DNA of 52,032 nt. It comes from a virus. Its lineage: Duplodnaviria > Caudoviricetes. The notes under the pieces are model-generated. The model searched no databases, had not been told where the DNA came from, and was given only the letters and a program-made list of their open reading frames with translations. This document shows, piece after piece, positions 9,619 to 45,660 of the stretch. Within the stretch, counting starts at the first letter, position 1. Each line of letters starts with the position of its first letter. The DNA lies in IMG/VR virus record IMGVR_UViG_3300044825_000404, positions 1 to 52,032 of that record, one strand, 5' to 3'. Made by a program: the position numbers and the translations under genes.

Positions 9619-9840
9619 TCATTGTGTTTTCCGCCTGTTTGCCCACCTGTCATCCAACTCAGCAATGAAGCCGCACATAGCCTCCTTGCTGATGTTCAGA
9701 TCCGTGCAGGTTCGGTGGTAGAAGACGGATGCGATCAGGAACTTCGTCTGCCATTCGTCGTCCTTGTACTGTTTCATGAGTTCAAGGACTCGACCGACGA
9801 CAGGGAACAGTCTCTCCTCCATGTCGCGGTCGAAGTTCAT
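9619..9840 (-). CDS. Hypothetical protein
   Basis: 73 aa; ATGA-coupled to the upstream gene; GGAGG RBS. Confidence 0.65.
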   Translation of the reverse strand: MNFDRDMEERLFPVVGRVLELMKQYKDDEWQTKFLIASVFYHRTCTDLNISKEAMCGFIAELDDRWANRRKTQ

Positions 9841-10268
9841 GACTGGGCCTCCACTGAACGGCGTAGTCCGTTGCGCTTCATCAAGATCCGCGCCTCGGTC
9901 TGGTCGGGCATCCGCTTGGCCTCTTGCGGGGTGTTGCGGCTGAGTTTCAGCGCCCGAGTCAGTTTCCGGTCCGCGGCCTCCATGTACAGATCGATCTGGG
10001 AGGCGTTCTCGCTCGGCAGCAGAATGCGGTAGCCCGTAGAGGTACCCGTGAGGTACTTGCCCTGTCCTAGCAGCATATTGCGGACATAGTCCGTTGCGGC
10101 CAACTCGATCAGGGACAGACGGTCATAGACGGCCTTGGGCGCTGACTCCGGCATCTCGATCTCAAGCAACTCGTGGACGAGTTTGGTCGGGATGATGGAG
10201 CCGTACTCAAGCATTCCCATCTTCTGCAGGGTGGAGTAGAACTCCTTGTGGGCTTCGCGGTTAGACAT
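9837..10268 (-). CDS. Accessory protein coupled to the RAMP-like gene
   Basis: 143 aa; start overlaps the stop of 10261..10860; GAGGTG RBS. Confidence 0.75.
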   Translation of the reverse strand: MSNREAHKEFYSTLQKMGMLEYGSIIPTKLVHELLEIEMPESAPKAVYDRLSLIELAATDYVRNMLLGQGKYLTGTSTGYRILLPSENASQIDLYMEAADRKLTRALKLSRNTPQEAKRMPDQTEARILMKRNGLRRSVEAQS

Positions 10269-10860
10269 GGCGCACCTCTGCCATAGCGCGACCGAACTTC
10301 GGGCGGAAGTCTCCGTAGCCGCAATACTTGGCGTGGAAGTCCACGATGCGCGTGATGCCGTCAGGGTCGATGATCTTGTCGTCGAACTCGATTTCGGTCT
10401 TAAACGACCACTGGTGAAAAATCGGGAACGCCTTGGCCAGACGCTTCTGCCCTTGAGGCAGATTCAGCATGATCCGGAAGGTTGGGTTCTTGACGATGTC
10501 CGTGACCGCTTTGACCTTGTCCATATCGCGGAAGGTCAACGGAATCTTCTCCTGCGTTACGAACAATGCGCCCCGGATGTCGGCCTTGCTCGTCTTCGCT
10601 ACGCGAAACGCTGTTGCGGCAATGGCCTCTGACAGCCAAGATGAGGGGACGTACACGCCTACTTTCTCATCGAAGTAAGACTTGCTCTCCATCTCCAGAT
10701 CGCGGTACTCAAGAAAGTCGTCGTCAGTGCGCTTGGTTTTCTTGTCGCTGATGGCCGACATCCTCTTGGCGAATCGGTTGAACCGATCCACTGTTTGAGG
10801 GTTGTTCATCAGCAGGGGGCTGACACCAGTGATGGTGATCTCTGCGTTTCTCATCGCCAT
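10261..10860 (-). CDS. Stand-alone Cas7/RAMP-like RNA-binding protein (putative guide-RNA effector)
   Basis: N-terminal strand ITITGVSPLLM, central VYVPSSWL, PIFHQWSF strand and C-terminal G-loop GYGDFRPKFGR match the RAMP/Cas7 motif order. Lies directly downstream of the pentamer array. Confidence 0.75.
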   Translation of the reverse strand: MAMRNAEITITGVSPLLMNNPQTVDRFNRFAKRMSAISDKKTKRTDDDFLEYRDLEMESKSYFDEKVGVYVPSSWLSEAIAATAFRVAKTSKADIRGALFVTQEKIPLTFRDMDKVKAVTDIVKNPTFRIMLNLPQGQKRLAKAFPIFHQWSFKTEIEFDDKIIDPDGITRIVDFHAKYCGYGDFRPKFGRAMAEVRHV

Positions 10861-10882: not shown

Positions 10883-10904
10883 TAAAAGCGCCGAGGTTCC
10901 CGGC
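10883..10904 (-). terminator. Hairpin with U-rich tail between the array and the RAMP-like gene (possible attenuator or processing site)
   Basis: GCCGGG-AAC-CTCGGC followed by GCTTTTAT on the minus strand. Confidence 0.35.
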
Positions 10905-10909
10905 TCAGT

Positions 10910-11455
10910 AGGTCTAAGCGACCTGGGAAGCACACCAAGATGTGTTGCCCGCGTTGCTTAACGATGCTGATCTTTCCGATGCTATGCGCTTCTATTCGCT
11001 TCCTAGCATTGGGTCTAAACGACCCGGAATGCCCCCGTAAGAGGCAGTCCGCGTTGCTTATCGCTTCAGTGCCATGCTCATCTCTTCTATGCTGTTTATT
11101 GCTCTTCGGTTCTCTTCAGTCGGGCCAAACGACCCGGCTAGTCCCCAGAAGAGACTGGCCGCGTTGCTTATCGTGACTTTTCATTACGGTGCACAGCACA
11201 TCAAACCAATGCGAAACGATGCTTTGCCTTTGGGCCTAAGCGACCCGGCTTGCACCCAGTGGACACAAGCCGCGTTGCTTGTCGTTGCTCTGTCTTGCAC
11301 AACTGTGCTATCCGTTGCAGTGCTCTTCATTTGAGTCTTGCGACCCGAAAAGCCCACCGTGATGGGCTGTTCGCGTAGCAGAGCCGTTCTCTTCATTGAT
11401 TTGCTATTCACTGCATATCAGTGCATTGCTCTTCACTGGGAGCCGAAGCCCCCGT
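10910..11455 (-). ncRNA. Array of five hairpin-bounded guide-like RNAs built from G(C/A)A-NN pentamers
   Basis: Conserved blocks GCGTTGCTT at 10951, 11051, 11161 and 11272 and GCGTAGCAG at 11373, each preceded by a CGACC(C/T)-containing double hairpin. Between them 62 of 65 plus-strand pentamers have C at position 2 (consensus (G/T)CNN(T/A)). Confidence 0.88.
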
Positions 11456-11458
11456 TGA

Positions 11459-11692
11459 TTACTTAGCCTCCGTGGCTTTGGCGATGGCGGCGCGTGCGTT
11501 CTTGAGACTGATCTTTTCGCTTTCGGTCTCAAGACGAACCTTCCCCTGCTTGTCAGTCCAAGCGCGAAAGAAAAGGCCGTTAATCAGAGCGCCAACACTT
11601 CGCCCTTGGCTTTCTTTTGCTTTGGCGATAAGTTGGTCAATGTTGAACATGACAACGCGCTCAAGTCTTGAGGATGTGTATGCAGTGGTCAT
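11459..11692 (-). CDS. Hypothetical protein
   Basis: 77 aa with AGGAGG RBS; ends just upstream of the first hairpin of the array. Confidence 0.7.
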   Translation of the reverse strand: MTTAYTSSRLERVVMFNIDQLIAKAKESQGRSVGALINGLFFRAWTDKQGKVRLETESEKISLKNARAAIAKATEAK

Positions 11693-11705
11693 CTCGGCCT
11701 CCTAA

Positions 11706-11999
11706 TCAGCGGGTGGTGGTCTTGACGGAGAACACGGCAGTGATGCTCGTGTTGGCGACGATGACATCCTCGGGGATGTTGCAGACCTTGGCGATAGCCT
11801 TCCAATCCGTGACCTTGCGGTTGGACTCAACCACAGTAGCCTTAAACAGGTTGCCTTCGACAACCTTGGCGCCACCGGCAGTGGCTGCATCCTTGATCGC
11901 ATCCTTGATCTTGTCAGCACGAGCCGTCAGTTCAGCGATCTGCGACAGCAGCAGGCCCAGTTCGTCGATCTGGGTCAGGGGGATGTTGTTGGTGTCCAT
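11706..11999 (-). CDS. Conserved hypothetical phage protein (coiled coil plus beta domain)
   Basis: IDELGLLLSQIAELTARADKIKDAIK...VVEGNLFKATV...DWKAIA; first gene after the promoter. Confidence 0.75.
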   Translation of the reverse strand: MDTNNIPLTQIDELGLLLSQIAELTARADKIKDAIKDAATAGGAKVVEGNLFKATVVESNRKVTDWKAIAKVCNIPEDVIVANTSITAVFSVKTTTR

Positions 12000-23537: not shown

Positions 23538-26500
23538 TTACCGCTTCGATTTTAGATAGTCAAGCGGAGATTTCAAAGCGGGTGGCGGAAGATCTTTTGG
23601 CCCCTTTGACCGCGCCCGATGCCGGATGTTGTGCATCATCTCGTACAACTTGTCGGTTCCGGCCTTGGTAGAACCGTTCCCGAGGGCGGAAACCACATCC
23701 GCCGGGAAGACAAACTCCCCGTCAGCAAGCCATGCCGGAATGTCGTCGGACTGGCCATCACCCTCCCCGGCAACGTGCTTCCCATCCTTGAAATCCTCGC
23801 GTCCGCCCTTGTGGGTGGGGAGGCCGCCAGACTTGGCCATCAAGGGCATGGGCATCCCGCCTTCCTTGGCCATCAGGGGCATCACATACCCGCCCTTTGC
23901 ATATCCCACAGGCTCTTCAACCTTTGGAGCCTCCGGAATGTTGAGGATCTTGTCGATCGGCTCTTCTTCCCCGTAGGAGTAGTAGGGTTCCGGAGCAGGG
24001 GTCTGTTGAGCCTGGGGCACACCCATGCGCTCGGCCAGGATGGCCGCCAGACGAGGATCAATGTTCTGCATCATTTCTTGTCTACCTACTTGCTCTTGAG
24101 CCTGTCGAAGTTGGGCCAGAGGGTCGATGTACTGTTGAGTGACTCGGGACGGCAACATCTGCGGGGGCAGGCGGCCATACTCCCCAGAGGTTCCTTCTAG
24201 GACGAAAGAAGGCAGTCCAGTCTGAACCGGGAAGTTCAAAGTGGGCTGACGAGTTGTAGCGGGCTGTTGAGGAGTCGGCTCACTCGTCAGTTGGCTTGTC
24301 AGTTGACTTGTGTCTTGTCCTGCTGAGGTAACTGCTTGAGTAGCAATCACCAACGCTTCATCTGGGTTCACACCCAACTTCGTGACCGTATTGACAACCG
24401 CATCAATGGCCGTCGTGGCGGGAGCGCCAGAGTTCACGGCAGAAGTCACGGCATTAGAAATGGCCGTGTTGACCGCCGTGGCCACATCCGTGCCCGTACT
24501 GACCGCCGTATCCACAGCAGTGGAAACCGCTGACTCGACTGCGCTAGAAGTTACCTGCTGAACGTCCGCTCCAGTTTCTACCGCCGTAGAAATTGCAGAC
24601 GAAACTGCGGTGGTGACCGCCGTATTGAGTGCTGTCTGCGTATCCGTCCCAGTGCTAACCGCAGTATCAACAGCAGTAGAGATTGCAGTGCTAACAGCGT
24701 TGCTCGTGGAAATGTTGACATCAGCCCCAGTTTGCGCCGCCGTAGAAACCGCAGAAGACACCGCGCTTGAAACCGCCGTGTTCACCGCGGTATCGGTGCT
24801 GACGCCCTGACTGACAGCGGCTTCCACTGCAGAGGTCACCGCAGAGTTCACCGCGGTAGAGACGGATGTGGCCGTATCGACACCAGTCGTCACAGACGCA
24901 ACCACTGCACCACTGACCGCAGAATCAACCGCCGTAGACACAGCAGTAGACACATTCGTGCCGGTGCTCACGGCAGTAGAAACGGCTGTGCTGACCGCAG
25001 AACTGACCGCGCTACTTACCGCAGTGCTGACATCCGTGTTCGTCGCCGTAGCGGCAGCCACCGCAGAATTAACTGCGCTGCTGACAGACGAGTCGATCGC
25101 CGTGCTGACATCAGTACCGGTATTGACGGCCGCAGCGATGGAGTTGTTGACCGCAGAAGAAACCGCTGAAGTCACCGCAGTGCTGACATTTGTTCCCGTG
25201 TTGGAGGCGGAGACAACAGCAGAGGAGACGGCAGAGTCAACCGCCGATGTCACGGCAGAACCAACCTCTACACCCGAGGCAATAGCCCCAGTCACCGCAC
25301 TCGTCACAGCGCCGGAGACTGACTTATCAATCACCGATCCGGGATCAGCCCCCGTGTTGACGGCAGTAGAAACGGCGTTGGAGACTGAGTTGCTGACCGC
25401 AGTAGAGACATCCGCGCCAGAGTTCACCGCCGCATTAACGGCACTGGTCGTGGCACTCTCTACAGCCGCAACAACATCCGTCCCGGTTTGAACTGCGTTG
25501 TTGACCGCAGCAGAAACTGCCGTTGAGACAACCTGACCTACATCTGTCCCTGTGGACAAGGCTGTGGAGATGTCCGTCTCAAGGTTCGCCAGATTTGGGA
25601 ACTGAGCCTCAAAGAACATCTGCTCAAGGTTCTTCTGCTCCTGAGTTTTTTCAGCGGTGGCGGTCTGTTGAATCGGCTGCTCCTGCGCCATAACGCTAGG
25701 CGCGGGCTCAATAGATACCGGGCTTGGGGCTAACACAGGTTCAGCCACAGGCTCCGGCACAGGGGCTGGCACAGGGGCTGGCGCAGGAGAAGGAGCAGTA
25801 GAAGCAGCGGGAGCAGGAGAAGGAGCGGGGGCGGCCTCAACTGGAGGGGCGAATGTTTGCTCAGGCGCCGGTGCGCGGAACTCAGACTCCGCCTGGACAA
25901 TTTGATTGACGATGCCAACCGCTTCAGGGATCGACAGCCCTGCATCAATAGCGGCATCTGTCGCGGCGTTGGCCACAGTCAAAATATCAGCACCCGCACT
26001 AGAAGCCGCAGCGACGGCAGATGTCACGGCATCCACAATCGAACTGGTCGTGTCTGCGCCAGACAACACAGCCGACCCAACCGCCGCGCTCACAGCCGAG
26101 TTCACCGCCGTAGAAACATCAGAACCTGCGCTGATGGCACTGCTTACGGCGCTGTTGACAGAACTCGTGATTGCATCAGCGACACTTGCTCCGGTATCAA
26201 CAACACTGGATACAGCACTGTTGACCGCGCTAGTCACTGCGCTTTGAACATCCACACCAGAACTGACTGCGGATGCAACCGCAGAACTTACCGCAGAGTT
26301 GATGGCCGACCCGGCGTTAGATCCTGAATCAATCGCACTGGTCACGGCACTTGAAACTGCGCCACCAATGGCTGCAGATGGTTCAGCGCCAGAAACTATG
26401 GCCGAATTTACTGCGCTATTGACAATACTTCCGACAACCGAGGTCGCAGACTCTCCGGACTGCACAGCGGTCGAAACCGCATCAGAAACAGAGGAGGAGA

Positions 26501-29500
26501 TGGTGTTGCCAACATCCGCTCCTGAAGAGATGCCAGAACTGATTGAAGAGGCAACATTTGAAGCAACGCTTTCAACAGTAGAACCGGTTGCAGCCTGCTC
26601 TGTAAAGCCCAGTTCTCGATAGGTTGTCGGTACGCCCTTCTCATCAAAGAACGCCACCATGTCGGGCGTTGCGCCAGGAGGCAGAGAAGTCGGCCGCTCG
26701 CTTACTTGCGCCCGATCGCCAACGATCTCAGAGATCCGCTCCTCCTTGGCGATCTGACGATCAAGGTCCGTTTCGGTGGCGACCTTCTCGGCGGCAGGAG
26801 TAAATCCAATCTGCCCCGCAGAGCCGGTGATGAGTTCAGGACCGACCGCCTGAACATCCACAGTTGAGGGCTGATAAGTGATGGCCGTTGGGCCACCCTC
26901 AAAAGTCATCTGCGTGGGAGTGCTACGACCCAGGAAGATCAGGTCAGCAAAGTCTCCGCTCTCATTTGTCTTGGTCTGCTGAATAGCATCAGAGAGTCGC
27001 GCATCAGTGGTAGCCGCATCCACCATGGCCGTAAGCGCACCACTTGCGATGGTCGCTTCTGCAAGCGTTCGCGGCAGGCCCTCATCCCAGTTCTTGTTCA
27101 GCGCCAGATTGCTGATGATCTTCGCGCTGCCTTCTTCAGCGTTCTCACTGGCAACCTCGCCCAGGTAGCGGGTGAGGATGCCCTTACCCTTGGTCTCCAG
27201 GAAGTCTTTGGATGCCTGACCGAGCAGGGCAACAGCGTTGCCTGTAGAGCCACCGGCAATCTTGGCTTCAACCGACAGAGCGCCAGGAATGAGTCGTTGA
27301 GCCGCAGCAGAGGCAAGGCCGGAAAGACTGGCAACAGAGCGCCCAATCTTCAGCACCTCCTCGTTGCTTAGGCCCATCCGCATGGCCTCGTCCATCGTGC
27401 TTGCCGCAGTCTGGGCGCCATGGACGCCCGCGTTGGTCAGGATGGCCGCAGCCTCCCGAGCAAGCATTCCACCCCCAATCATCCTTGCGCTTGCCATGGC
27501 ACCACCACCGGCCAGGACTGTCGGAGAGGTCTCAGCAAGGAAGCCCGCCGCCTGCATCGGGTTGACACCGTACTGGTACAGAGTCGTGAAGAACCCACCA
27601 CCCGCAGCACGGATGGCAAGGTTCATGTCATCACGGTTCTGCTTGTAGACATCCGACAGAGACCTGTCGAGTTCATTGGCGTATGAAGCAAACCCTGCGC
27701 TGATGTCGCCCTGCTCACCTCGAACCAGATCAGCAATAGTGAACGGGGCGGCAGCCACAGAAGCCGCGCCCTTGACTGCTTGCTTCAGGACATCAGACCC
27801 AATCTGGGCAACCTCTGCAGGTTGCGTCCTACCACCCATGGCCTGCCACTCTTCAAAGGTTGGAGGCGCAATTTTGTTGCCCGCGGAGTCGGTCGGGACA
27901 AACTTGTCGATGTAGTCCAGATAGCGATCCATGTCGTTGAATCGCTTGCCCGTGGCCACAAAGGTCTGATCAGGCTTCGGAGGCGCTACCTTCTCAACCT
28001 CCTGAACTGTTGGCACACCACCCTCACCGGTGACCATCTGTTGAGCGGCCGCCGTGTAGTCGATTGCGGGCTCAGATGGCTGAACAGGTGGCTTGGTCGC
28101 CGTCTTGTCGGGCGTGAATCCCGTCGTAAGAGAGTCAACCGGAGCGCCCTCCATGCCCGTAGCGGCAGCAGAAAAGTCTGTCTGCGCCGTCTCAATCGGA
28201 GCAGTTTCTCCACGAAGAGGAACATTCTTCAGATAGGCAGTTGCCTCTCTGGTGTCAGGAACAACCGCGCCACGCCCAGAACCTGCTGCTGCAGCAGGCT
28301 CAGAGATCGTGATCTTGGGAATGCCCATCTGCAAGATGGGAATGCCGGTTGCTCTCGCGGTTGCAACGTCAATGGCATCAGGGATCCGATACTCCTTGCC
28401 CTGATACATGAAGGTGCCGGTCAATCCATCATTGAACGCCTTCATGCCCGCCTGATCAATACTTCCGGCGCTGCTGTAATCAGGTAGAGAAGCGACGCGT
28501 TGCTGCTCCATGTAAGCCTTATTGGCCTGCGATAGTTCGTCTTCCCCAGTGCGAGAGACGACATAGATGTTTCCAGAACGAGCCGGGAACTCAAAAGTTC
28601 CATAGCCGCGAGATGAGGCAAGAGCACTTGCTTCATCAAGCGTTTTGACATCCATGCTCGGATCAATCTGAAGAGCCTGATCTCGGCGGATGGACTCTGT
28701 TACATCCTTCTCAGTAGGAAGAGCGCCTTGAGGGAAGGCTTGACCTGCCTTTTGGCCCTCTGCGATCAGTTCTCTAGTTGGAGCCTGAGACGCATAGTCA
28801 ACGGCATTAAACAGATCAATCGCCGCGCCGATGAGTTGCGACGGATCCGCACCAGATCGAACCAAATTCAGCATCACCGCAGACTTGGCGGCGATCGAAG
28901 CATTCGGAGAGTCAGCCAACTGGCCAACAGCGTTGATGATGCTGTTGACGTTTGGCTTACTAGAGAACACTTCAGCAGCAAGATTGGCTGCGCCCTGGAT
29001 CTGATTCGGCGTGAAGCCAAGGTTCTTCAGGCCAGTCTGAGCGCCCGCACTAAGACCACCGACAAGAGCACCAACCCCCAGGCCACTCGTGTCTCCAGTT
29101 GCGATGGCTGATGGAATAGCCCCAATGAGTCCTTTCGTCGCTCCGCCCAGAATTTCGCCCGTAAGTCCAGGTCCAACCGCGGTCTGCACAGCGCCACTGG
29201 CTTGGGAAGCCAACTGGCCCGCTCCACCGCCTAGACCGCCAACAACAATCGACTTCAGGAGATCAGAGCCTGATGCGCCAGACGCAACACCACCAAGACC
29301 GCCAAGAACAGCGCCCCCGGCGATGGATCCTCCCATGCCAGTACCAAAGCCAAGAGCCTCGCCAATACCTGGGGCTCCCATGGTCGCACCAATAAAAGCC
29401 GCCGCGAGTCCAACCGGCTTCCGCCAATCTTCAGACTCGTCATACTTGTCAATGCCAAGAATTGTTCCGTTGGCATCCAAATTGATGATGTAGCCGCTAT

Positions 29501-32500
29501 CACCGCCAGTCTTGAGGTTCAGAGACTGACCAGTGATGTTGCCATTTGTGTCCGTGCTGACGGTCTGCTCAAATGCGGTGCCCGCAGGAGCAAAAGATGA
29601 GTCCGTATTGGTCTTGCCGGTTGTTCCGGCAATCTGATAGCCCTGAACACCTCCGAACGGGTCGCCTAATGCGATGATTGAATACTTGCCGAATTGCTGA
29701 GGAACCGCTTGTGGGCCCGCCTCTCCCGCATCCATGAATGCGTTCTGGCCGGTAATGCTTGACTTTGCGAAGTTGATGGCGTCTTGCAAAGAGAGAGTCG
29801 GAGCGCCCTGGCGATCCTCTCGCGCACCATAGTTGACGTAGTGCCTCTTCGCTTCGGCCTCTGTATCAATGCCCGCCTGTCCCAAATCGGGGTTCAGACG
29901 GACATATTCCTTCCAGTCAAATCCAGGTGGGACGGCTGAGAAGTTTTCCTCGCGGAACCCTGATTCTCCTGTGTACGGGTCGGAGAAGAATGGGCGCAAA
30001 TCTTGGCCCCAGTCATCAACCCCTTGAGCAGGAGCAGGAGCAGGAGCGGGAGCAGGTGCGGGGGCAGGTGCGGGGGCAGAGGTCTGTAGGCCATACTGCC
30101 TCATCAAGCCGCGAACGGTTGTCTCTGGAACTCTGAAGGTTTCAGCAGTAAGAGCAACCGCCTGATCAACCGGCATCCCTTCTGAGACCCAAGACTGCAA
30201 GAGGTCAAAAGCCTCCGACTCTGAGCCCTGAAGAGAAAACTGAGGCGTAGACCCTTGGGCGGCATCCAGAGCGCCTGTCGTCGTAACTTGGCCAGAGGTG
30301 TCTGCGGCTTGATCTACATCTGTAGAGGTCAACCCTGCGGCAGTAAGCGCCCCCGTGGTTTGGGCATCCTCAAGAGACTGATCAACTTCTGTAGCCTGAC
30401 CAGTTAGGTCGCCAGTGTCGATGAAGGCGCCGCCAGTAACAACATTGCCGCCTCCAGGAAGAGCGCCAGTAGTGACTCCGCCGGTCTCCCCGATGGTGGA
30501 GCCGGTCCCTCCAACGGTGCGCTTCTCTGGTTGGTTGTAGTCGTTACCAAGAACAGCCCACTCAGATGAAGGATCAAAGAGGCTCTTCGCCGCATCCGAA
30601 CCTTCCGGCTCCCAATCTTCAAGACCAAAGTTTACAAACTCACTTACGCCCGGAAGCGACATGAGTCTTTGGTTGTAAGCATTAGCGGCTTCTTCTTCGC
30701 CCTTCCTAGCAAACCCTTGTGTGACTATTTTTAGTTCTTTGCCAAGCGCGTTTACCTGAGCCGCAAAGTTCTTAGTCCAATCATAAAGTTGGTCTGCCGG
30801 AACACCCCATCCCAGATACGGATCAAGCGCAACAAAGTCAGCATTTGAATTTCTGATCTCATCAAGCAACTGCTGATCTGTTGCTTTGCCTTGGAATACA
30901 GGGTAAGGCGAAATAACAACACCCGCCCTTTGGCCCTTGGATTGCGTATCTTTAACCTTCTTGACTAGGTCTGAGCCTACAGGGCTATGAGGGTTCCAAA
31001 ACAACTCGTCAGAGATAACAACTTCATTCCCGCGCTGAAAAATTGCATCAGGAGACTTAATTGATTTGCTCGTTGGATCTTTTGTGGCATTTGATCCCGT
31101 AACCCAACTATTTGCATCTCCAAAGTTTGATAGCAAAGGCCCAGAGCCCGTCTTGTTAAAGAAGTCAGTAACTGTAAAGTTAGTCCCAAGAGCGCGGTTC
31201 CACAAGTTGACCGCATCCTGCGGCCTCATTCCTTGTTGAACAACCCAATCAAGCCCACGCTGCGTTGCCACCGCATCGTTTGCGCCGCCTTGATAGATGT
31301 ATTGCTTGAACCATTCCGGCGAACCGGCCACCGGAGTAGAAGCCGCTTGAGAAAGCGCAGAGCCAGTAATACCTGTCTGACCTGCGGCGCTCTCGGTGCT
31401 AGAAACATCTCTGCGCTGATTGTCTGCAACAGTGAGACCAGAATCCTTCTTGGCTAGAGTCGTTTGACTCAAGGTCTGGCCGATCTTGTCAGCCATCAGG
31501 CGACCAAATTCAGCGTTTTGATGCACCCCGTCAAGCAGGGAGCCTGCAGGGATCCCAACGCTACGAACATCAACAAATGGCAGGTTGTACTTCTGCGCCA
31601 GTTGCTGAATGCCTGCGTTGATCTGATCGGCAACCGTCGCGCTCTCACGGGTCAAATACCCGGCGATGTTGCCGCCGATGGAGTCCGCACCACCAAAGAA
31701 CGGAGACACCCCAACAAGAACAGGCGTTGATCCGTTGCGTTGAGCAATCTGGATCATCTGCTCAATGTTGCTCAGGGACTTGTTGGCATCCCCAAGTTTG
31801 ATGGCGTCTGCCGCTCCATAACGAAGCACAACCTGATCAGGTCGATTGGTTGAGATGTAGTTCTCAAAACTGCCGTAGTCTGTGTTCCCGGTCAGGGCAT
31901 CTTGAGAAGTCTGCCCGCCAGTAGCGACGTTGTTGACAACACCGCCCGTGTAGTCGGACAGAACACCTTCAAGAGAGTTGCCGCGAGAAGTATCCGCGCT
32001 ACCGTCCATGCGGTAGCCCAATACAGAACTGATGGAGTCGCCAAAGACGGTTGTCTTGAATGGCGAAGTTTCTCCAGATGCCCGGTAGTAGTCGTTGACA
32101 TTGAATTGCGTCCCCAGAGCCCGATTGAACTCGGTGACCGCCTGCATGGGGGTCCAACCCTTCTGCTTGGCATATTCAATAGCCCGTTGAGTAGCGGTGG
32201 CGTCATTTGCGCCACCCGCATACATATACTGCTTGAACCACTCAGGGGTGCCTTCCGTGGGCCCACTAGGTGCAGCCATCTGCGTTACGCTGCCCAAAGC
32301 ACCAATGTTTTCATTTGGAAGACCGATTGCATCTTCCATGAAGGACGGCACAGAACTGACATTGATGGGAGGCTGAATGTTTGCAGTCACCCCTCTCGCA
32401 GCAGGCAAACCTCCGACGCTTGTCAGCGCAGATGTGCTCAATCCCGAAAGATCTTGTCCGATGTCAATCGAATCATCCTCCGGTATGTCCAGAGGAGACT

Positions 32501-32546
32501 GATAGCCGTCCATGCGGTCTTCGTATTGATTGATGGGCAGTGCCAT
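23538..32546 (-). CDS. Giant (3002 aa) internal virion protein with an SGNH hydrolase, a putative glycan-related domain and V/S/A/T repeats
   Basis: FGDSIS/GGQTS/YGAAD/DGVH SGNH blocks; FDWKEYVRLNPDL module; C-terminal GDGQSDDIPAWLADGEFVFPADVVSALGNGS domain. Confidence 0.75.
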   Translation of the reverse strand: MALPINQYEDRMDGYQSPLDIPEDDSIDIGQDLSGLSTSALTSVGGLPAARGVTANIQPPINVSSVPSFMEDAIGLPNENIGALGSVTQMAAPSGPTEGTPEWFKQYMYAGGANDATATQRAIEYAKQKGWTPMQAVTEFNRALGTQFNVNDYYRASGETSPFKTTVFGDSISSVLGYRMDGSADTSRGNSLEGVLSDYTGGVVNNVATGGQTSQDALTGNTDYGSFENYISTNRPDQVVLRYGAADAIKLGDANKSLSNIEQMIQIAQRNGSTPVLVGVSPFFGGADSIGGNIAGYLTRESATVADQINAGIQQLAQKYNLPFVDVRSVGIPAGSLLDGVHQNAEFGRLMADKIGQTLSQTTLAKKDSGLTVADNQRRDVSSTESAAGQTGITGSALSQAASTPVAGSPEWFKQYIYQGGANDAVATQRGLDWVVQQGMRPQDAVNLWNRALGTNFTVTDFFNKTGSGPLLSNFGDANSWVTGSNATKDPTSKSIKSPDAIFQRGNEVVISDELFWNPHSPVGSDLVKKVKDTQSKGQRAGVVISPYPVFQGKATDQQLLDEIRNSNADFVALDPYLGWGVPADQLYDWTKNFAAQVNALGKELKIVTQGFARKGEEEAANAYNQRLMSLPGVSEFVNFGLEDWEPEGSDAAKSLFDPSSEWAVLGNDYNQPEKRTVGGTGSTIGETGGVTTGALPGGGNVVTGGAFIDTGDLTGQATEVDQSLEDAQTTGALTAAGLTSTDVDQAADTSGQVTTTGALDAAQGSTPQFSLQGSESEAFDLLQSWVSEGMPVDQAVALTAETFRVPETTVRGLMRQYGLQTSAPAPAPAPAPAPAPAPAQGVDDWGQDLRPFFSDPYTGESGFREENFSAVPPGFDWKEYVRLNPDLGQAGIDTEAEAKRHYVNYGAREDRQGAPTLSLQDAINFAKSSITGQNAFMDAGEAGPQAVPQQFGKYSIIALGDPFGGVQGYQIAGTTGKTNTDSSFAPAGTAFEQTVSTDTNGNITGQSLNLKTGGDSGYIINLDANGTILGIDKYDESEDWRKPVGLAAAFIGATMGAPGIGEALGFGTGMGGSIAGGAVLGGLGGVASGASGSDLLKSIVVGGLGGGAGQLASQASGAVQTAVGPGLTGEILGGATKGLIGAIPSAIATGDTSGLGVGALVGGLSAGAQTGLKNLGFTPNQIQGAANLAAEVFSSKPNVNSIINAVGQLADSPNASIAAKSAVMLNLVRSGADPSQLIGAAIDLFNAVDYASQAPTRELIAEGQKAGQAFPQGALPTEKDVTESIRRDQALQIDPSMDVKTLDEASALASSRGYGTFEFPARSGNIYVVSRTGEDELSQANKAYMEQQRVASLPDYSSAGSIDQAGMKAFNDGLTGTFMYQGKEYRIPDAIDVATARATGIPILQMGIPKITISEPAAAAGSGRGAVVPDTREATAYLKNVPLRGETAPIETAQTDFSAAATGMEGAPVDSLTTGFTPDKTATKPPVQPSEPAIDYTAAAQQMVTGEGGVPTVQEVEKVAPPKPDQTFVATGKRFNDMDRYLDYIDKFVPTDSAGNKIAPPTFEEWQAMGGRTQPAEVAQIGSDVLKQAVKGAASVAAAPFTIADLVRGEQGDISAGFASYANELDRSLSDVYKQNRDDMNLAIRAAGGGFFTTLYQYGVNPMQAAGFLAETSPTVLAGGGAMASARMIGGGMLAREAAAILTNAGVHGAQTAASTMDEAMRMGLSNEEVLKIGRSVASLSGLASAAAQRLIPGALSVEAKIAGGSTGNAVALLGQASKDFLETKGKGILTRYLGEVASENAEEGSAKIISNLALNKNWDEGLPRTLAEATIASGALTAMVDAATTDARLSDAIQQTKTNESGDFADLIFLGRSTPTQMTFEGGPTAITYQPSTVDVQAVGPELITGSAGQIGFTPAAEKVATETDLDRQIAKEERISEIVGDRAQVSERPTSLPPGATPDMVAFFDEKGVPTTYRELGFTEQAATGSTVESVASNVASSISSGISSGADVGNTISSSVSDAVSTAVQSGESATSVVGSIVNSAVNSAIVSGAEPSAAIGGAVSSAVTSAIDSGSNAGSAINSAVSSAVASAVSSGVDVQSAVTSAVNSAVSSVVDTGASVADAITSSVNSAVSSAISAGSDVSTAVNSAVSAAVGSAVLSGADTTSSIVDAVTSAVAAASSAGADILTVANAATDAAIDAGLSIPEAVGIVNQIVQAESEFRAPAPEQTFAPPVEAAPAPSPAPAASTAPSPAPAPVPAPVPEPVAEPVLAPSPVSIEPAPSVMAQEQPIQQTATAEKTQEQKNLEQMFFEAQFPNLANLETDISTALSTGTDVGQVVSTAVSAAVNNAVQTGTDVVAAVESATTSAVNAAVNSGADVSTAVSNSVSNAVSTAVNTGADPGSVIDKSVSGAVTSAVTGAIASGVEVGSAVTSAVDSAVSSAVVSASNTGTNVSTAVTSAVSSAVNNSIAAAVNTGTDVSTAIDSSVSSAVNSAVAAATATNTDVSTAVSSAVSSAVSTAVSTAVSTGTNVSTAVSTAVDSAVSGAVVASVTTGVDTATSVSTAVNSAVTSAVEAAVSQGVSTDTAVNTAVSSAVSSAVSTAAQTGADVNISTSNAVSTAISTAVDTAVSTGTDTQTALNTAVTTAVSSAISTAVETGADVQQVTSSAVESAVSTAVDTAVSTGTDVATAVNTAISNAVTSAVNSGAPATTAIDAVVNTVTKLGVNPDEALVIATQAVTSAGQDTSQLTSQLTSEPTPQQPATTRQPTLNFPVQTGLPSFVLEGTSGEYGRLPPQMLPSRVTQQYIDPLAQLRQAQEQVGRQEMMQNIDPRLAAILAERMGVPQAQQTPAPEPYYSYGEEEPIDKILNIPEAPKVEEPVGYAKGGYVMPLMAKEGGMPMPLMAKSGGLPTHKGGREDFKDGKHVAGEGDGQSDDIPAWLADGEFVFPADVVSALGNGSTKAGTDKLYEMMHNIRHRARSKGPKDLPPPALKSPLDYLKSKR
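24330..26590 (-). repeat. Two blocks of degenerate ~19-23-aa coding repeats (G-T/A-D-V-S-T-A-V-x-S-A-V-S-x-A-V) split by a Pro/Ala linker
   Basis: Visible in the translation of 23538..32546. Confidence 0.8.
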
Positions 32547-42395: not shown

Positions 42396-42581
42396 TCACT
42401 CCTGCTTCTGTTCTTCCTCTTTGGGAGGATCTTGAGGTGCCAACTGGGCTTCTGCCTGCGTCTTGACCTTCATGGCCACAGGGAATGCTCCAGACTTGGT
42501 GGGAAGTTCACTCAGCCCCGCGAGGATGAGTTGGATGTCTTCAATGGTGAGGTTTTTTAGAGTCAGCATATTTTTACTCAA
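42396..42581 (-). CDS. Small tail-fibre assembly-type protein
   Basis: ILAGLSELP...KVKTQAEAQ; lies between fibre genes. Confidence 0.6.
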   Translation of the reverse strand: MSKNMLTLKNLTIEDIQLILAGLSELPTKSGAFPVAMKVKTQAEAQLAPQDPPKEEEQKQE

Positions 42582-45500
42582 AAAGCAACAAGAAGTTTGC
42601 CGTTACTGGCGGCGGCACATAAATCGGGAACACAGATATGTCTTTTATGTAGACATAGTTCGTTGAACCACCAGAGGAGAAAGCCCAACCAGAGTTGTTG
42701 CCGCCATCAGTGCTGTTCGCGCCTGCATACCAAAATCCGATTGCCCTTGTTAGGGTTGCTCTAAGCCCTGGAACTGAGGTGTATATCCTCACCACATTAC
42801 TAACATTACCAGTATAGGTAAAGTTGTTTATTGTTTGGGTTGTACCGCTAGTAAATACAAGTTGCTGAAATGCGCCGTTTGCTAGGGTGGCAAATGTATT
42901 ACTCCCGCCCACACTCAAAGTGTTTGCGGTTGTGCCATTGTTATTTGTAACCGTCCCAAATGTAAGGCCGCCGCCTAAAAATGATTTATTGCTTGCATTT
43001 GTTAAAGAAATAGATGAAGAAGCGCCAGAAAATGTAAGTCCTGATGAGTTGTCAAAGTTAATTGGCCCTGTGCCCGCACAACTAATGGTGCTAGTGCCAA
43101 AATTTATAGTTCTAGTGTTTGAGTTAGAACTAGTAATTGATGAGCAAGTTACATTGTAGTTTTGAGTGCTATAAGAGCCCCTGGTTATCGTAATGCTTGC
43201 AGCAGATGACAAAAACGCATCACCATGCCTAAAGTCGCAGGAAGGATTATCAATATTTATTGAGTTTCCTCCTTTGGCGGCAGTGGTAAATGTTTGAGTT
43301 GAAGATCCTCTAAAAAAATATGTTCCAGTGTAAAGATTAGTCACGCCAGATCCATAAGTTACATTGCCATGTATGTAACTAACTTGGCTTCCTGACCATG
43401 TGACAACAGTTGTTCGGGCTGAAAAATCTATGGTTCCAATGTTCCAACCGGTGTTTACTGTTATTTGAGTGGCCGCCCCTGCGTCATCAAACACCGCCGT
43501 GTCTTGAGCCAAGGGGAAGTTGTTTGCGGCAGGAGACCCTCCACTGGTAAGGGCCCACCCAGTAGAAGACCAGTTCTGGGTTCCGGTCAAGTTCCAATAG
43601 ACCGTCTTTGGCGCATCAAAACCGATGCCGCTGTTGTTGCCGCAGTCACCTATACGAGTGCCACCAGTCCATGTACCAGTTCCTGCTGCAACGATGTCTT
43701 TGAAATCAATGTCGCTCAAACCGACCACAGTACCTGCCGTGATGGTTCTTTGCACCCCAGGAGGCTCACTTACATAGGTTCTTCTCTGTGTTACAGAACC
43801 ACCCGCACCAAGGTCAAAAGTCCCTGTGACTGTGACATTACCGTACAGCACAGCAAACAAAACACCCGTCGTCGAGGTTTGTGAGGGAACTGTCAACGTG
43901 CCATAGGTTGTGTTCCCATAGAAATTTGGGTTAACCGATGACGATGACATCAATGCACTGCCAAAACTCGCAGTTATTCCACTGAACCCAAGAGTAACGA
44001 ACGATGAAGTAGAAACAATACTTGCGGTGTTGGCGGTGACCGTTAATCCTGAAGAGTTTCCTGACGAACCAACGCCAGTTGTTGCATTGAGAGTGCTAGA
44101 ACCGAATGTGTATGTCCTTGTCGGCGTATACGATACACTGACAGTGGTTATGCTGTTGCAGGTTACGGTGTTGTTGGCAGTGTCAAATGTGCCTTGTTCT
44201 AGGTTGATAGTTCCAAACCCGCAATTCAACGATCCCCCAAGAGTTATTGTTCCTCCTGGAGAGTTAATAGTAACGCCACCTATGTTTCTTCCGCCAGTAT
44301 TCAAAGTCGCCGCACTTCTTGCGAAGAACGACATGGTGCCGCTACCACTAGTAAAAGTGCTAGTTCCGTTGAGAATAAAGTCCCCATACATAATTGTGGG
44401 GTTGTTGATATTAAGAGTTACACCGTTTGTTCTGCTGCTTGTATTGATGGACTTGACATTAAATGCGGCAAGTGTAAGTGTAGTACCACTATTTAAGCCT
44501 GCGTTGTCAATAATTACATCATCTTGAGCAAGAGGAAAATCATTGACAGATGCCGTCCCGCCACTTGTGGTCGTCCAAATGGTCGCCGTCCAACTTGAAC
44601 TAATCGTCCCTGCGGCAATATATTTGTTGACCCCGGCTGAAAATGTGATGCCAGAGTTGCCAAGGGCGTTGCCTAGTCTTGTCCCGCTCCATGGGGCAGA
44701 TGCGCCAGTAACTGCGATGTCCATGAAGTCAACATCAGACAAAGCAGAAACAGCGGCAACATTGAAGGTTCTCGTAGCGCCCGGTTGGTTAGACCTAAGA
44801 AAGTACCTTCTGGTTGGGGACAAGCCAGTAATGGTGAATGTCCCGTTTATGGTTTGATTTCCATAAACATTTATTGTGACTAATCCAGTTCCTGCGCTTA
44901 ATGCGCCTAGGGTGAAATTGTTGTATACGTTGTTCCCGTATATGTTACTAATGATAATCCCGCTGCCGCAAGTGACATTATTAAATGTAACAGTGTTAGA
45001 GCCTTGTGTCCCAAAACTCCCTGCAGATGTAAGAAACTGAATTGTTGATGTTCCGGCATTGAATGAAACAAAATCATTCAACAAGAAATTGCCAAAATTG
45101 CTGACAAAAAATGTAGAAGATCCAAGATTGACTGCTGATGCAACACTTGGTTGGGCAAAAAAACCGCCACAGTTTACTAGGTAACCGTTAGTGTTAAAAG
45201 TTCCTGCAGATAGAGTTAATTGTCCGCATACTAAACTAGAGCCAAGATTAAAAGTTCCTCCAACACAGTTAATGAAAACCTGTCCGGTTGTCAGTTGAGT
45301 TCCGTTTGTGGTGCAAGTTTGGCTTGCTGTAGACTGAAAGTAAACACTTCCAGTGTAAGTCCTTGAAACGCCAGTAGCGGCAAATGTCAAGTCTCCATAA
45401 ATGAACCAAGCGGCACTTCCGGCAATAGTTACTACCCCAGATGTAGGGCCGCTTATATTGCAAGATTTGCAAACAGCGCCAGTTGAAATAGTTACCGTAT

Positions 45501-45660
45501 ATCCAAGTCCACTGCTTGATGCCGAGTCAAAGATGACATCATCTTCCGCGCTAGGGGCGCGAGTTGATAGGATGGTTCTGCCAGGGTTTGTGTACCACCG
45601 GCCAGTAACCGTGAAGCCATCCCAAGCATTGCTTCCGCCGCCCCAGTAGAGAGTAGCCAT
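42574..45660 (-). CDS. Beta-helix receptor-binding/tail fibre protein, AT-rich
   Basis: YWGGGSNAWD start; three similar segments, including PSAEDDVIFD and two FPLAQD copies; marked drop in GC. Confidence 0.7.
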   Translation of the reverse strand: MATLYWGGGSNAWDGFTVTGRWYTNPGRTILSTRAPSAEDDVIFDSASSSGLGYTVTISTGAVCKSCNISGPTSGVVTIAGSAAWFIYGDLTFAATGVSRTYTGSVYFQSTASQTCTTNGTQLTTGQVFINCVGGTFNLGSSLVCGQLTLSAGTFNTNGYLVNCGGFFAQPSVASAVNLGSSTFFVSNFGNFLLNDFVSFNAGTSTIQFLTSAGSFGTQGSNTVTFNNVTCGSGIIISNIYGNNVYNNFTLGALSAGTGLVTINVYGNQTINGTFTITGLSPTRRYFLRSNQPGATRTFNVAAVSALSDVDFMDIAVTGASAPWSGTRLGNALGNSGITFSAGVNKYIAAGTISSSWTATIWTTTSGGTASVNDFPLAQDDVIIDNAGLNSGTTLTLAAFNVKSINTSSRTNGVTLNINNPTIMYGDFILNGTSTFTSGSGTMSFFARSAATLNTGGRNIGGVTINSPGGTITLGGSLNCGFGTINLEQGTFDTANNTVTCNSITTVSVSYTPTRTYTFGSSTLNATTGVGSSGNSSGLTVTANTASIVSTSSFVTLGFSGITASFGSALMSSSSVNPNFYGNTTYGTLTVPSQTSTTGVLFAVLYGNVTVTGTFDLGAGGSVTQRRTYVSEPPGVQRTITAGTVVGLSDIDFKDIVAAGTGTWTGGTRIGDCGNNSGIGFDAPKTVYWNLTGTQNWSSTGWALTSGGSPAANNFPLAQDTAVFDDAGAATQITVNTGWNIGTIDFSARTTVVTWSGSQVSYIHGNVTYGSGVTNLYTGTYFFRGSSTQTFTTAAKGGNSINIDNPSCDFRHGDAFLSSAASITITRGSYSTQNYNVTCSSITSSNSNTRTINFGTSTISCAGTGPINFDNSSGLTFSGASSSISLTNASNKSFLGGGLTFGTVTNNNGTTANTLSVGGSNTFATLANGAFQQLVFTSGTTQTINNFTYTGNVSNVVRIYTSVPGLRATLTRAIGFWYAGANSTDGGNNSGWAFSSGGSTNYVYIKDISVFPIYVPPPVTANFLLLFE

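Follow-up and report, generated by a model that had tools for sequence, protein, structure and literature searches.

The phage locus, its Vipr protein and the guide array

The DNA analysed here, referred to as the window, is the whole record of a freshwater phage with a length of 52,032 bases, which is about 92% complete and contains terminase and tail-fibre genes, the nearest cultured terminases being only 41% identical to that of the phage. No gene with a PF00239 or PF00589 domain was found in this 92% complete record. Elsewhere in the window, an ORF of 3002 aa with low-complexity repeats (23538-32546) and an ORF of 1028 aa with low GC (46-49%) among the tail genes (42574-45660) were observed.

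The gene vipr (10261-10860, minus strand) encodes a RAMP-fold protein of 199 aa and belongs to phrog_4652. A profile of 48 relatives matches the Vipr of SUSP1 (PDB 36pp, residues 4-197; E 2.1e-24), and the structure model (pLDDT 87.7) resembles CRISPR RAMPs (Foldseek E 1e-5 to 5e-3). The first G of the repeat is read by an aspartate, D177 in SUSP1 and D184 here, which is invariant in 121 of 121 proteins, and the position of the second-G arginine of SUSP1, R138, aligns to F145, with F in 102 and R in none of the same 121 proteins. An invariant tryptophan, W75, aligns near the pocket which excludes purines at the third base, a gap lying beside that alignment. Next to vipr a gene of 143 aa (9837-10268, minus strand) is a candidate vap accessory gene, weak relatives of which adjoin vipr in two cultured phages, phiHSIC and Vibrio phage 1.266.O; no family was found for it, and a single-sequence model reached a pLDDT of 42 with no usable fold.

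Upstream of vipr all five guide-plus-tail units of a vrRNA array are located on the minus strand (10910-11437), namely unit 1 (10910-11010), unit 2 (11011-11121), unit 3 (11122-11231), unit 4 (11232-11332) and unit 5, which is the first of the array and is divided into a guide region (11373-11437) and a structured 3' tail (11333-11372). Each guide comprises 12-13 pentamers, and their fixed triplet shows, by position, G in 85%, A or C in 87% and A in 74%. A terminator-like hairpin (10890-10904, minus strand), recognised by consensus match only, closes the array.

The tail of unit 5 is composed of a covarying hairpin and a subsequent small hairpin, and the region around it (11330-11384) has a folding z of -3.7. 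Among 24 tails, which are related to one another and were scored against a structure named by the analyst beforehand, the main hairpin is 99% paired, with compensatory changes on both sides in eight of nine pairs, and a pseudoknot-like helix formed by the end of the guide and the second loop is paired in 95%, two of its four pairs showing double changes; the loop of the small hairpin may pair back with the end of the guide. Directly 5' of guide 5 a hairpin with a UUCG loop (11438-11453, minus strand; z -3.0, two of 200 shuffles being as good) possibly serves as a processing site or 5'-end boundary. A search of Rfam returned no match, and a promoter-like site at 12077-12048 was discarded as being at chance level (one found, 0.6 expected).

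Register and predicted targets of guide 5

The 13 pentamers and dinucleotides which the initial annotation had listed for the minus strand of 11373-11437 were recovered letter for letter. In the triplet/NN register the scaffold triplets read GAA, GCA, GCA, GAT, GCA, GAA, GCA, TCA, GAA, GAA, GCT and GCT, none of the 12 being GGY, and the pattern G[AC][AT] fits 11 of these 12 in-phase triplets compared with a maximum of seven in 102,666 windows of 65 bases elsewhere on both strands, so the periodicity of five nucleotides is beyond chance. The region from 11301 to 11500 lies outside any long ORF and contains stops in five of six frames. The guide is not an assembly artefact, because contigs of four public studies cover it, and its best match within the phage itself is 16/24. 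No RNA dataset was listed among the sequencing runs, which has no bearing on whether the guide is expressed.

The gapped site specified by dinucleotides 1/2-12 lies in serine-recombinase genes, which bears out, through the in-register matches given below, the earlier decoding of the guide into a serine-recombinase motif, with the exception of its last residue: the 13th dinucleotide (AC, read as threonine) is not variable but part of a block, [AT]ACGC, situated ahead of the tail in five of five units of the window, is invariant scaffold and provides no evidence on the target. The T of the 12th dinucleotide covaries with the tail loop (changed on both sides in two of 24 rows) and may be structural as well.

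Exact searches gave no match to dinucleotides 1-11 in viral contigs and none to dinucleotides 2-11 in GTDB, and a single match to dinucleotides 2-12 in metagenomes, which agrees with 25/26 over all 13 and lies in a gene with Resolvase plus Recombinase domains adjoining DUF2924 and tRNA-Ser. A perfect site was found neither in viral contigs nor in GTDB, the metagenomes or the genomes searched. The full pattern, which had been proposed as a regular expression whose exact hits would suggest the host by their taxonomy, accordingly had no exact match, and the near matches in GTDB span Alpha-, Beta- and Gammaproteobacteria and others.

Relaxed searches led to one gene family. Viral contigs contain 43 matches to dinucleotides 5-12, and a profile from which the guide footprint was excluded assigns 22 of them, in frame, to serine-recombinase ORFs; these 22 include every viral match of at least 22/26; in GTDB, with one base relaxed, all 15 of 15 matches are recombinases (23-25 of 26). 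The patterns of both scans were picked as the most motif-like parts of the guide. At dinucleotides 1-4, which were not queried in the viral scan, 5.2 of 8 bases match in the 22 recombinase sites compared with 2.6 in the other 21. A single shuffle of the same dinucleotides gave five matches, none of them in a recombinase; the 21 non-recombinase matches exceed this number, and their antisense or other-frame readings were set aside, being scattered over unrelated ORFs with several duplicates. With the one metagenomic match and 12 of 12 fetched genome sites in recombinase frames, serine-recombinase genes were enriched among the best gapped matches in each collection, which is the result on which the initial annotation had made its reading depend, and this reading is largely supported.

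The pattern of 12 dinucleotides with one base skipped and up to three mismatches was found at 33 sites in 26 of 401 genomes, all of one order and one of them being the seed, compared with about 0.55 sites expected by chance (assuming about 1.36 Gb) and none in a reversed control. Sites with only two mismatches amount to 13 in the 400 unselected genomes, where 0.025 were expected. The 12 fetched sites aside, the other 21 are known from their matched bases alone. A zero-skip form was absent from 151 genomes, 13 of which have a one-skip match; two- and three-skip forms were scored on the collected loci only. The base skipped by the guide is the variable third codon position in the target sites.

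Pfam Resolvase (PF00239) and Recombinase (PF07508) were both above cut-off in seven of seven target ORFs scanned, and DUF2924 is present in 39 of 50 recombinase-positive loci, some of which are redundant, with one Tepidicella locus counted three times. The sites occur in prophage-like regions with terminase, ParB-methylase, DUF5681 or Bro-N genes and in small islands. Among 40 distinct recombinase sites the tail-proximal dinucleotides 6-11 are invariant, partly by query design, and the C of dinucleotide 4 is matched by three. From these sequences it is likely that guide 5 targets mostly DUF2924-linked large serine recombinases. Two of the islands, in Aromatoleum (L114:1328-7469) and Ramlibacter (L119:13225-19369), contain the recombinase and two similar uncharacterised genes (about 280 and 610 aa, no Pfam) and adjoin restriction-modification-like genes; they are possibly undescribed satellite-like elements.

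Sister guides, related loci and possible convergence

Guide 3 is antisense to genes of VapE-domain primase-helicases: 39 of 39 viral matches fall in one VapE-type ATPase motif, several of them perfect (22/22), and VapE was confirmed by Pfam in three of three targets tested. Guide 5 has the sequence of the coding strand, and the combination of one sense and one antisense guide fits recognition of DNA, as had been argued beforehand from their opposite orientation. Guide 2, which is in sense orientation, is moderately supported as directed at PriCT-2 primase domains, with best sites of 22/24. Its exact pattern had no match, and its core pattern had 106 matches, 80 of which were examined and 21 fit a PriCT-2-like regular expression; as a PriCT-2-specific pattern the core was rejected, many matches ending an unrelated ORF family. 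One of the two best sites (L206:529-557, 22/24) is in the PriCT-2 primase of another phage, the contig of which shares the dataset number in its public name with L001, a carrier of the same array as the window. No targets of guides 1 and 4 were found in the collected loci or in the 28 genomes with a recombinase site, and guide 3 was likewise without a match in those 28 genomes; the array consequently does not converge on one element there.

The search for related viral loci yielded ten: in L001 and L002 the five guides are all the same as in the window, in seven others the guides differ and the tails or repeats are related, and L006 is truncated. In the parsed guides of this G(A/C)A clade, GCA and GAA together account for 153 of 272 triplets and GGY for four. 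GCA/NN arrays are also situated beside Viprs of 49% identity in the cultured phages phiHSIC (L132:2085-2430), where the annotation has hypothetical ORF21, on the opposite strand, in place of the array, and Vibrio phage 1.266.O (L239).

Several observations concern the mobility of the guides. In four related loci (L003, L004, L005 and L007) the first slot holds a different guide ahead of the tail of guide 5, and in one sequencing run (X5) a joint was seen at window position 11380, near the junction of guide and tail, which together suggests an exchange of guides at this junction. In L001 and L002 the genes upstream of the identical guide set differ from those at window positions 11454-11999, position 11454 is a break point of contigs in three runs, and the window has an extra ORF of 77 aa (11459-11692), so that the guide cassette seems to move as a module. 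Another locus, L008, has a guide with a 5' part similar to the alternative first-slot guide, and two guides in its region 2437-2611 decode to H-G-G-x-S-x-G-P-like peptides, which presumably recall the HGGxSTG motif of phage-like elements.

A search for DNA that has the form of a guide and encodes the core of six dinucleotides in guide 5 gave nine loci: two copies of the window array, one probable chance match in a coding region (L245), which was dropped, and six GGY tracts near phrog_4652-type genes. Tracts decoding to the same serine-recombinase motif lie at L240:2234-2260, in L246, L243 and L247 and at L242:7018-7044; L241 is doubtful, with a fit of only 18/22 to recombinase sites. Four of the six GGY tracts belong to one lineage, whose Viprs are 96-100% alike, share 24% identity with the Vipr of the window, keep the arginine and match SUSP1 Vipr with E 1.8e-44. 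The unqueried flanks in this lineage read I-V before the core and L after it (best site 19/20), those in L242 read V-V before and L-T-R after it (best site 22/24). The strand and D-R codons of the serine recombinase may be a convergent hot spot for guides of distant VIPR systems, a lead that comes from direct examples.

Proposed function and relation to known systems

In all probability, vrRNA 5 and Vipr silence the large serine-recombinase gene of a resident element and block its excision. According to this proposal, the phage would produce a vrRNA of about 105 nt from unit 5, which Vipr subunits would coat at one per pentamer, holding the G(A/C)A triplets and presenting the dinucleotides. 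These would pair with the template strand of the recombinase gene, two bases being read and the wobble base of each codon skipped, over a footprint predicted to cover the codons of the catalytic-domain strand and the D-R-L motif. Bound Vipr would block transcription, and the prophage or integrative element would be unable to excise and compete while the phage, in which no integrase was detected, replicates. Expression, formation of the ribonucleoprotein, DNA binding, silencing and the block of excision are modelled on the SUSP1 papers.

It is improbable, though less so than the other alternatives, that guide 5, once acquired to target a recombinase of this kind, is now lagging or broad and partly mismatched, with little effect on present elements, or that it acts on small resolvases and not on an excision enzyme. 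The best sites carry at least one mismatch, one fetched site (L123) is in a resolvase-like ORF of 214 residues without DUF2924, and the first slot with the same tail is occupied by a different guide in four related loci. However, two further viral contigs have guide 5 unaltered, and where contigs of the four public studies are listed as differing from it, the differences affect a scaffold G. Large recombinases or remnants of them hold every one of the best sites (23/24), and the invariance of dinucleotides 6-11, to which query design contributed, likewise counts against this reading. Serine recombinases of this kind serve integration as well as excision, and the complex might act to another end, blocking the integration of incoming temperate phages or decoying a rival Vipr, or it might act on RNA. 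Pairing of SUSP1 VIPR with RNA is possible in vitro (bioRxiv 10.64898/2026.04.26.720927, in part), and decoy vrRNAs are described in the available portion of another preprint (bioRxiv 10.64898/2026.10.15.759431). Guide 5, however, has the sequence of the mRNA itself, which excludes pairing between the two, guide 3 is antisense, and the cognate vipr gene next to the array means that this is not a solo vrRNA; these readings are considered very unlikely.

The possibility that a degenerate repeat happens to decode to this motif by chance is refuted by the controls and was given hardly any weight. A single 23/24 site is not significant at the size of GTDB (about 0.3 expected), but the excess of two-mismatch sites in the unselected genomes, the lack of recombinase sites in reversed, zero-skip and shuffled controls, the perfect matches of sister guide 3 in one other mobile-element family and the same recombinase motif encoded by distant VIPR systems all stand against chance.

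Going beyond the silencing of the recombinase by guide 5, we tentatively consider, at somewhat less than even chances, that guides against the hot spot were acquired separately by the G(A/C)A clade, by the GGY clade whose Vipr is 24% identical, by SUSP1 and probably by a third lineage, and in addition that the G(A/C)A clade, through loss of the arginine reading the second G, is an orthogonal Vipr-RNA pair not open to hijacking by the GGY decoy RNAs of satellites. If true, this would provide a programmable channel beside the first and a means of studying how guides are acquired. Orthogonality is directly testable, since cultured phages of the clade exist (phiHSIC, Vibrio phage 1.266.O).

VIPR, its one-skip code and transcriptional silencing were defined by Yoon et al. 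(bioRxiv 10.64898/2026.04.26.720920; structures in the partly available 10.64898/2026.04.26.720927), with arrays of 9-16 pentamers, each having a variable NN and a fixed triplet that is GGY "or a related consensus"; alternative YNNNG and NNNNG repeats are mentioned in the text of the same work (bioRxiv 10.64898/2026.04.26.720920). The window system shares with VIPR a phage-encoded RAMP protein with a thumb and a G-loop bearing the conserved aspartate, pentamer guides with structured tails, a skip of one base that falls on the wobble position, targets on either strand with none in the phage itself, and a minimal phage locus in which vipr is flanked by a non-coding array. Its scaffold is G(A/C)A, whereas characterised VIPRs have GGY, and can be fitted to YNNNG/NNNNG in a shifted register. 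The canonical clades of SUSP1 and P. fulva combine the GGY triplet with R138, neither of which is found in guide 5 and its Vipr, and the Vipr of the window is about 29% identical to Felixounavirus-type Viprs, with all units on the upstream side of vipr. By its sequence the system is a VIPR in the broad sense, outside the canonical GGY clades. Arrays with a period of 5 nt and non-GGY triplets beside Vipr folds have been reported in 21 clusters, with GAC, CAC, WGT and TGH as examples (bioRxiv 10.64898/2026.10.21.760802, available passages); they are like the window in this respect, G(A/C)A is not named in those passages, figures aside, and unlike for guide 5 no targets are given there.

Class 1 CRISPR RAMPs (Cas7/Csm3/Cmr) are similar to Vipr in fold, as noted above, but the window locus has no repeat-spacer array, and recognition is gapped, not contiguous. 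TIGR-Tas differs in an 18-nt periodicity and a Tas effector, compared with a period of 5 and a Vipr effector.

The closest parallel is vrRNA4 of SUSP1, which, in the available part of the report, covers residues 79-84 of the serine recombinase of the F5 satellite, loss of vipr allowing excision (Lopez et al., bioRxiv 10.64898/2026.10.15.759431). On the basis of that part, both guides are wobble-aligned on the catalytic domain, in SUSP1 that of a serine recombinase of about 500 aa, and residues 79-84, the strand immediately preceding the D-R motif, correspond by a count made by eye to dinucleotides 2-7 of guide 5. Guide 5 differs, within the same limits, in Vipr clade and scaffold, in a longer footprint which includes the D-R-L codons, and in its recombinase family, mostly DUF2924-linked and located at prophage ends and in small islands of Proteobacteria; the helper-satellite relation is a feature of SUSP1 and the F5 satellite as described there, whereas the targets of guide 5 are known from sequence alone. 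The literature searched contained no paper in which a DUF2924-linked recombinase is named as a target of VIPR, and figures or supplements may list the scaffold or the target. VIPR, and the silencing of a satellite serine recombinase by it, are already published, and the core idea is not new; to this the window system adds target evidence which extends the one-skip code to a scaffold other than GGY, a link between the scaffold change and a specific Vipr residue at the position of SUSP1 R138, and a widespread class of integrative elements, those with DUF2924-linked large serine recombinases, as likely VIPR targets, about 6% of the sampled genomes of one order containing sites.
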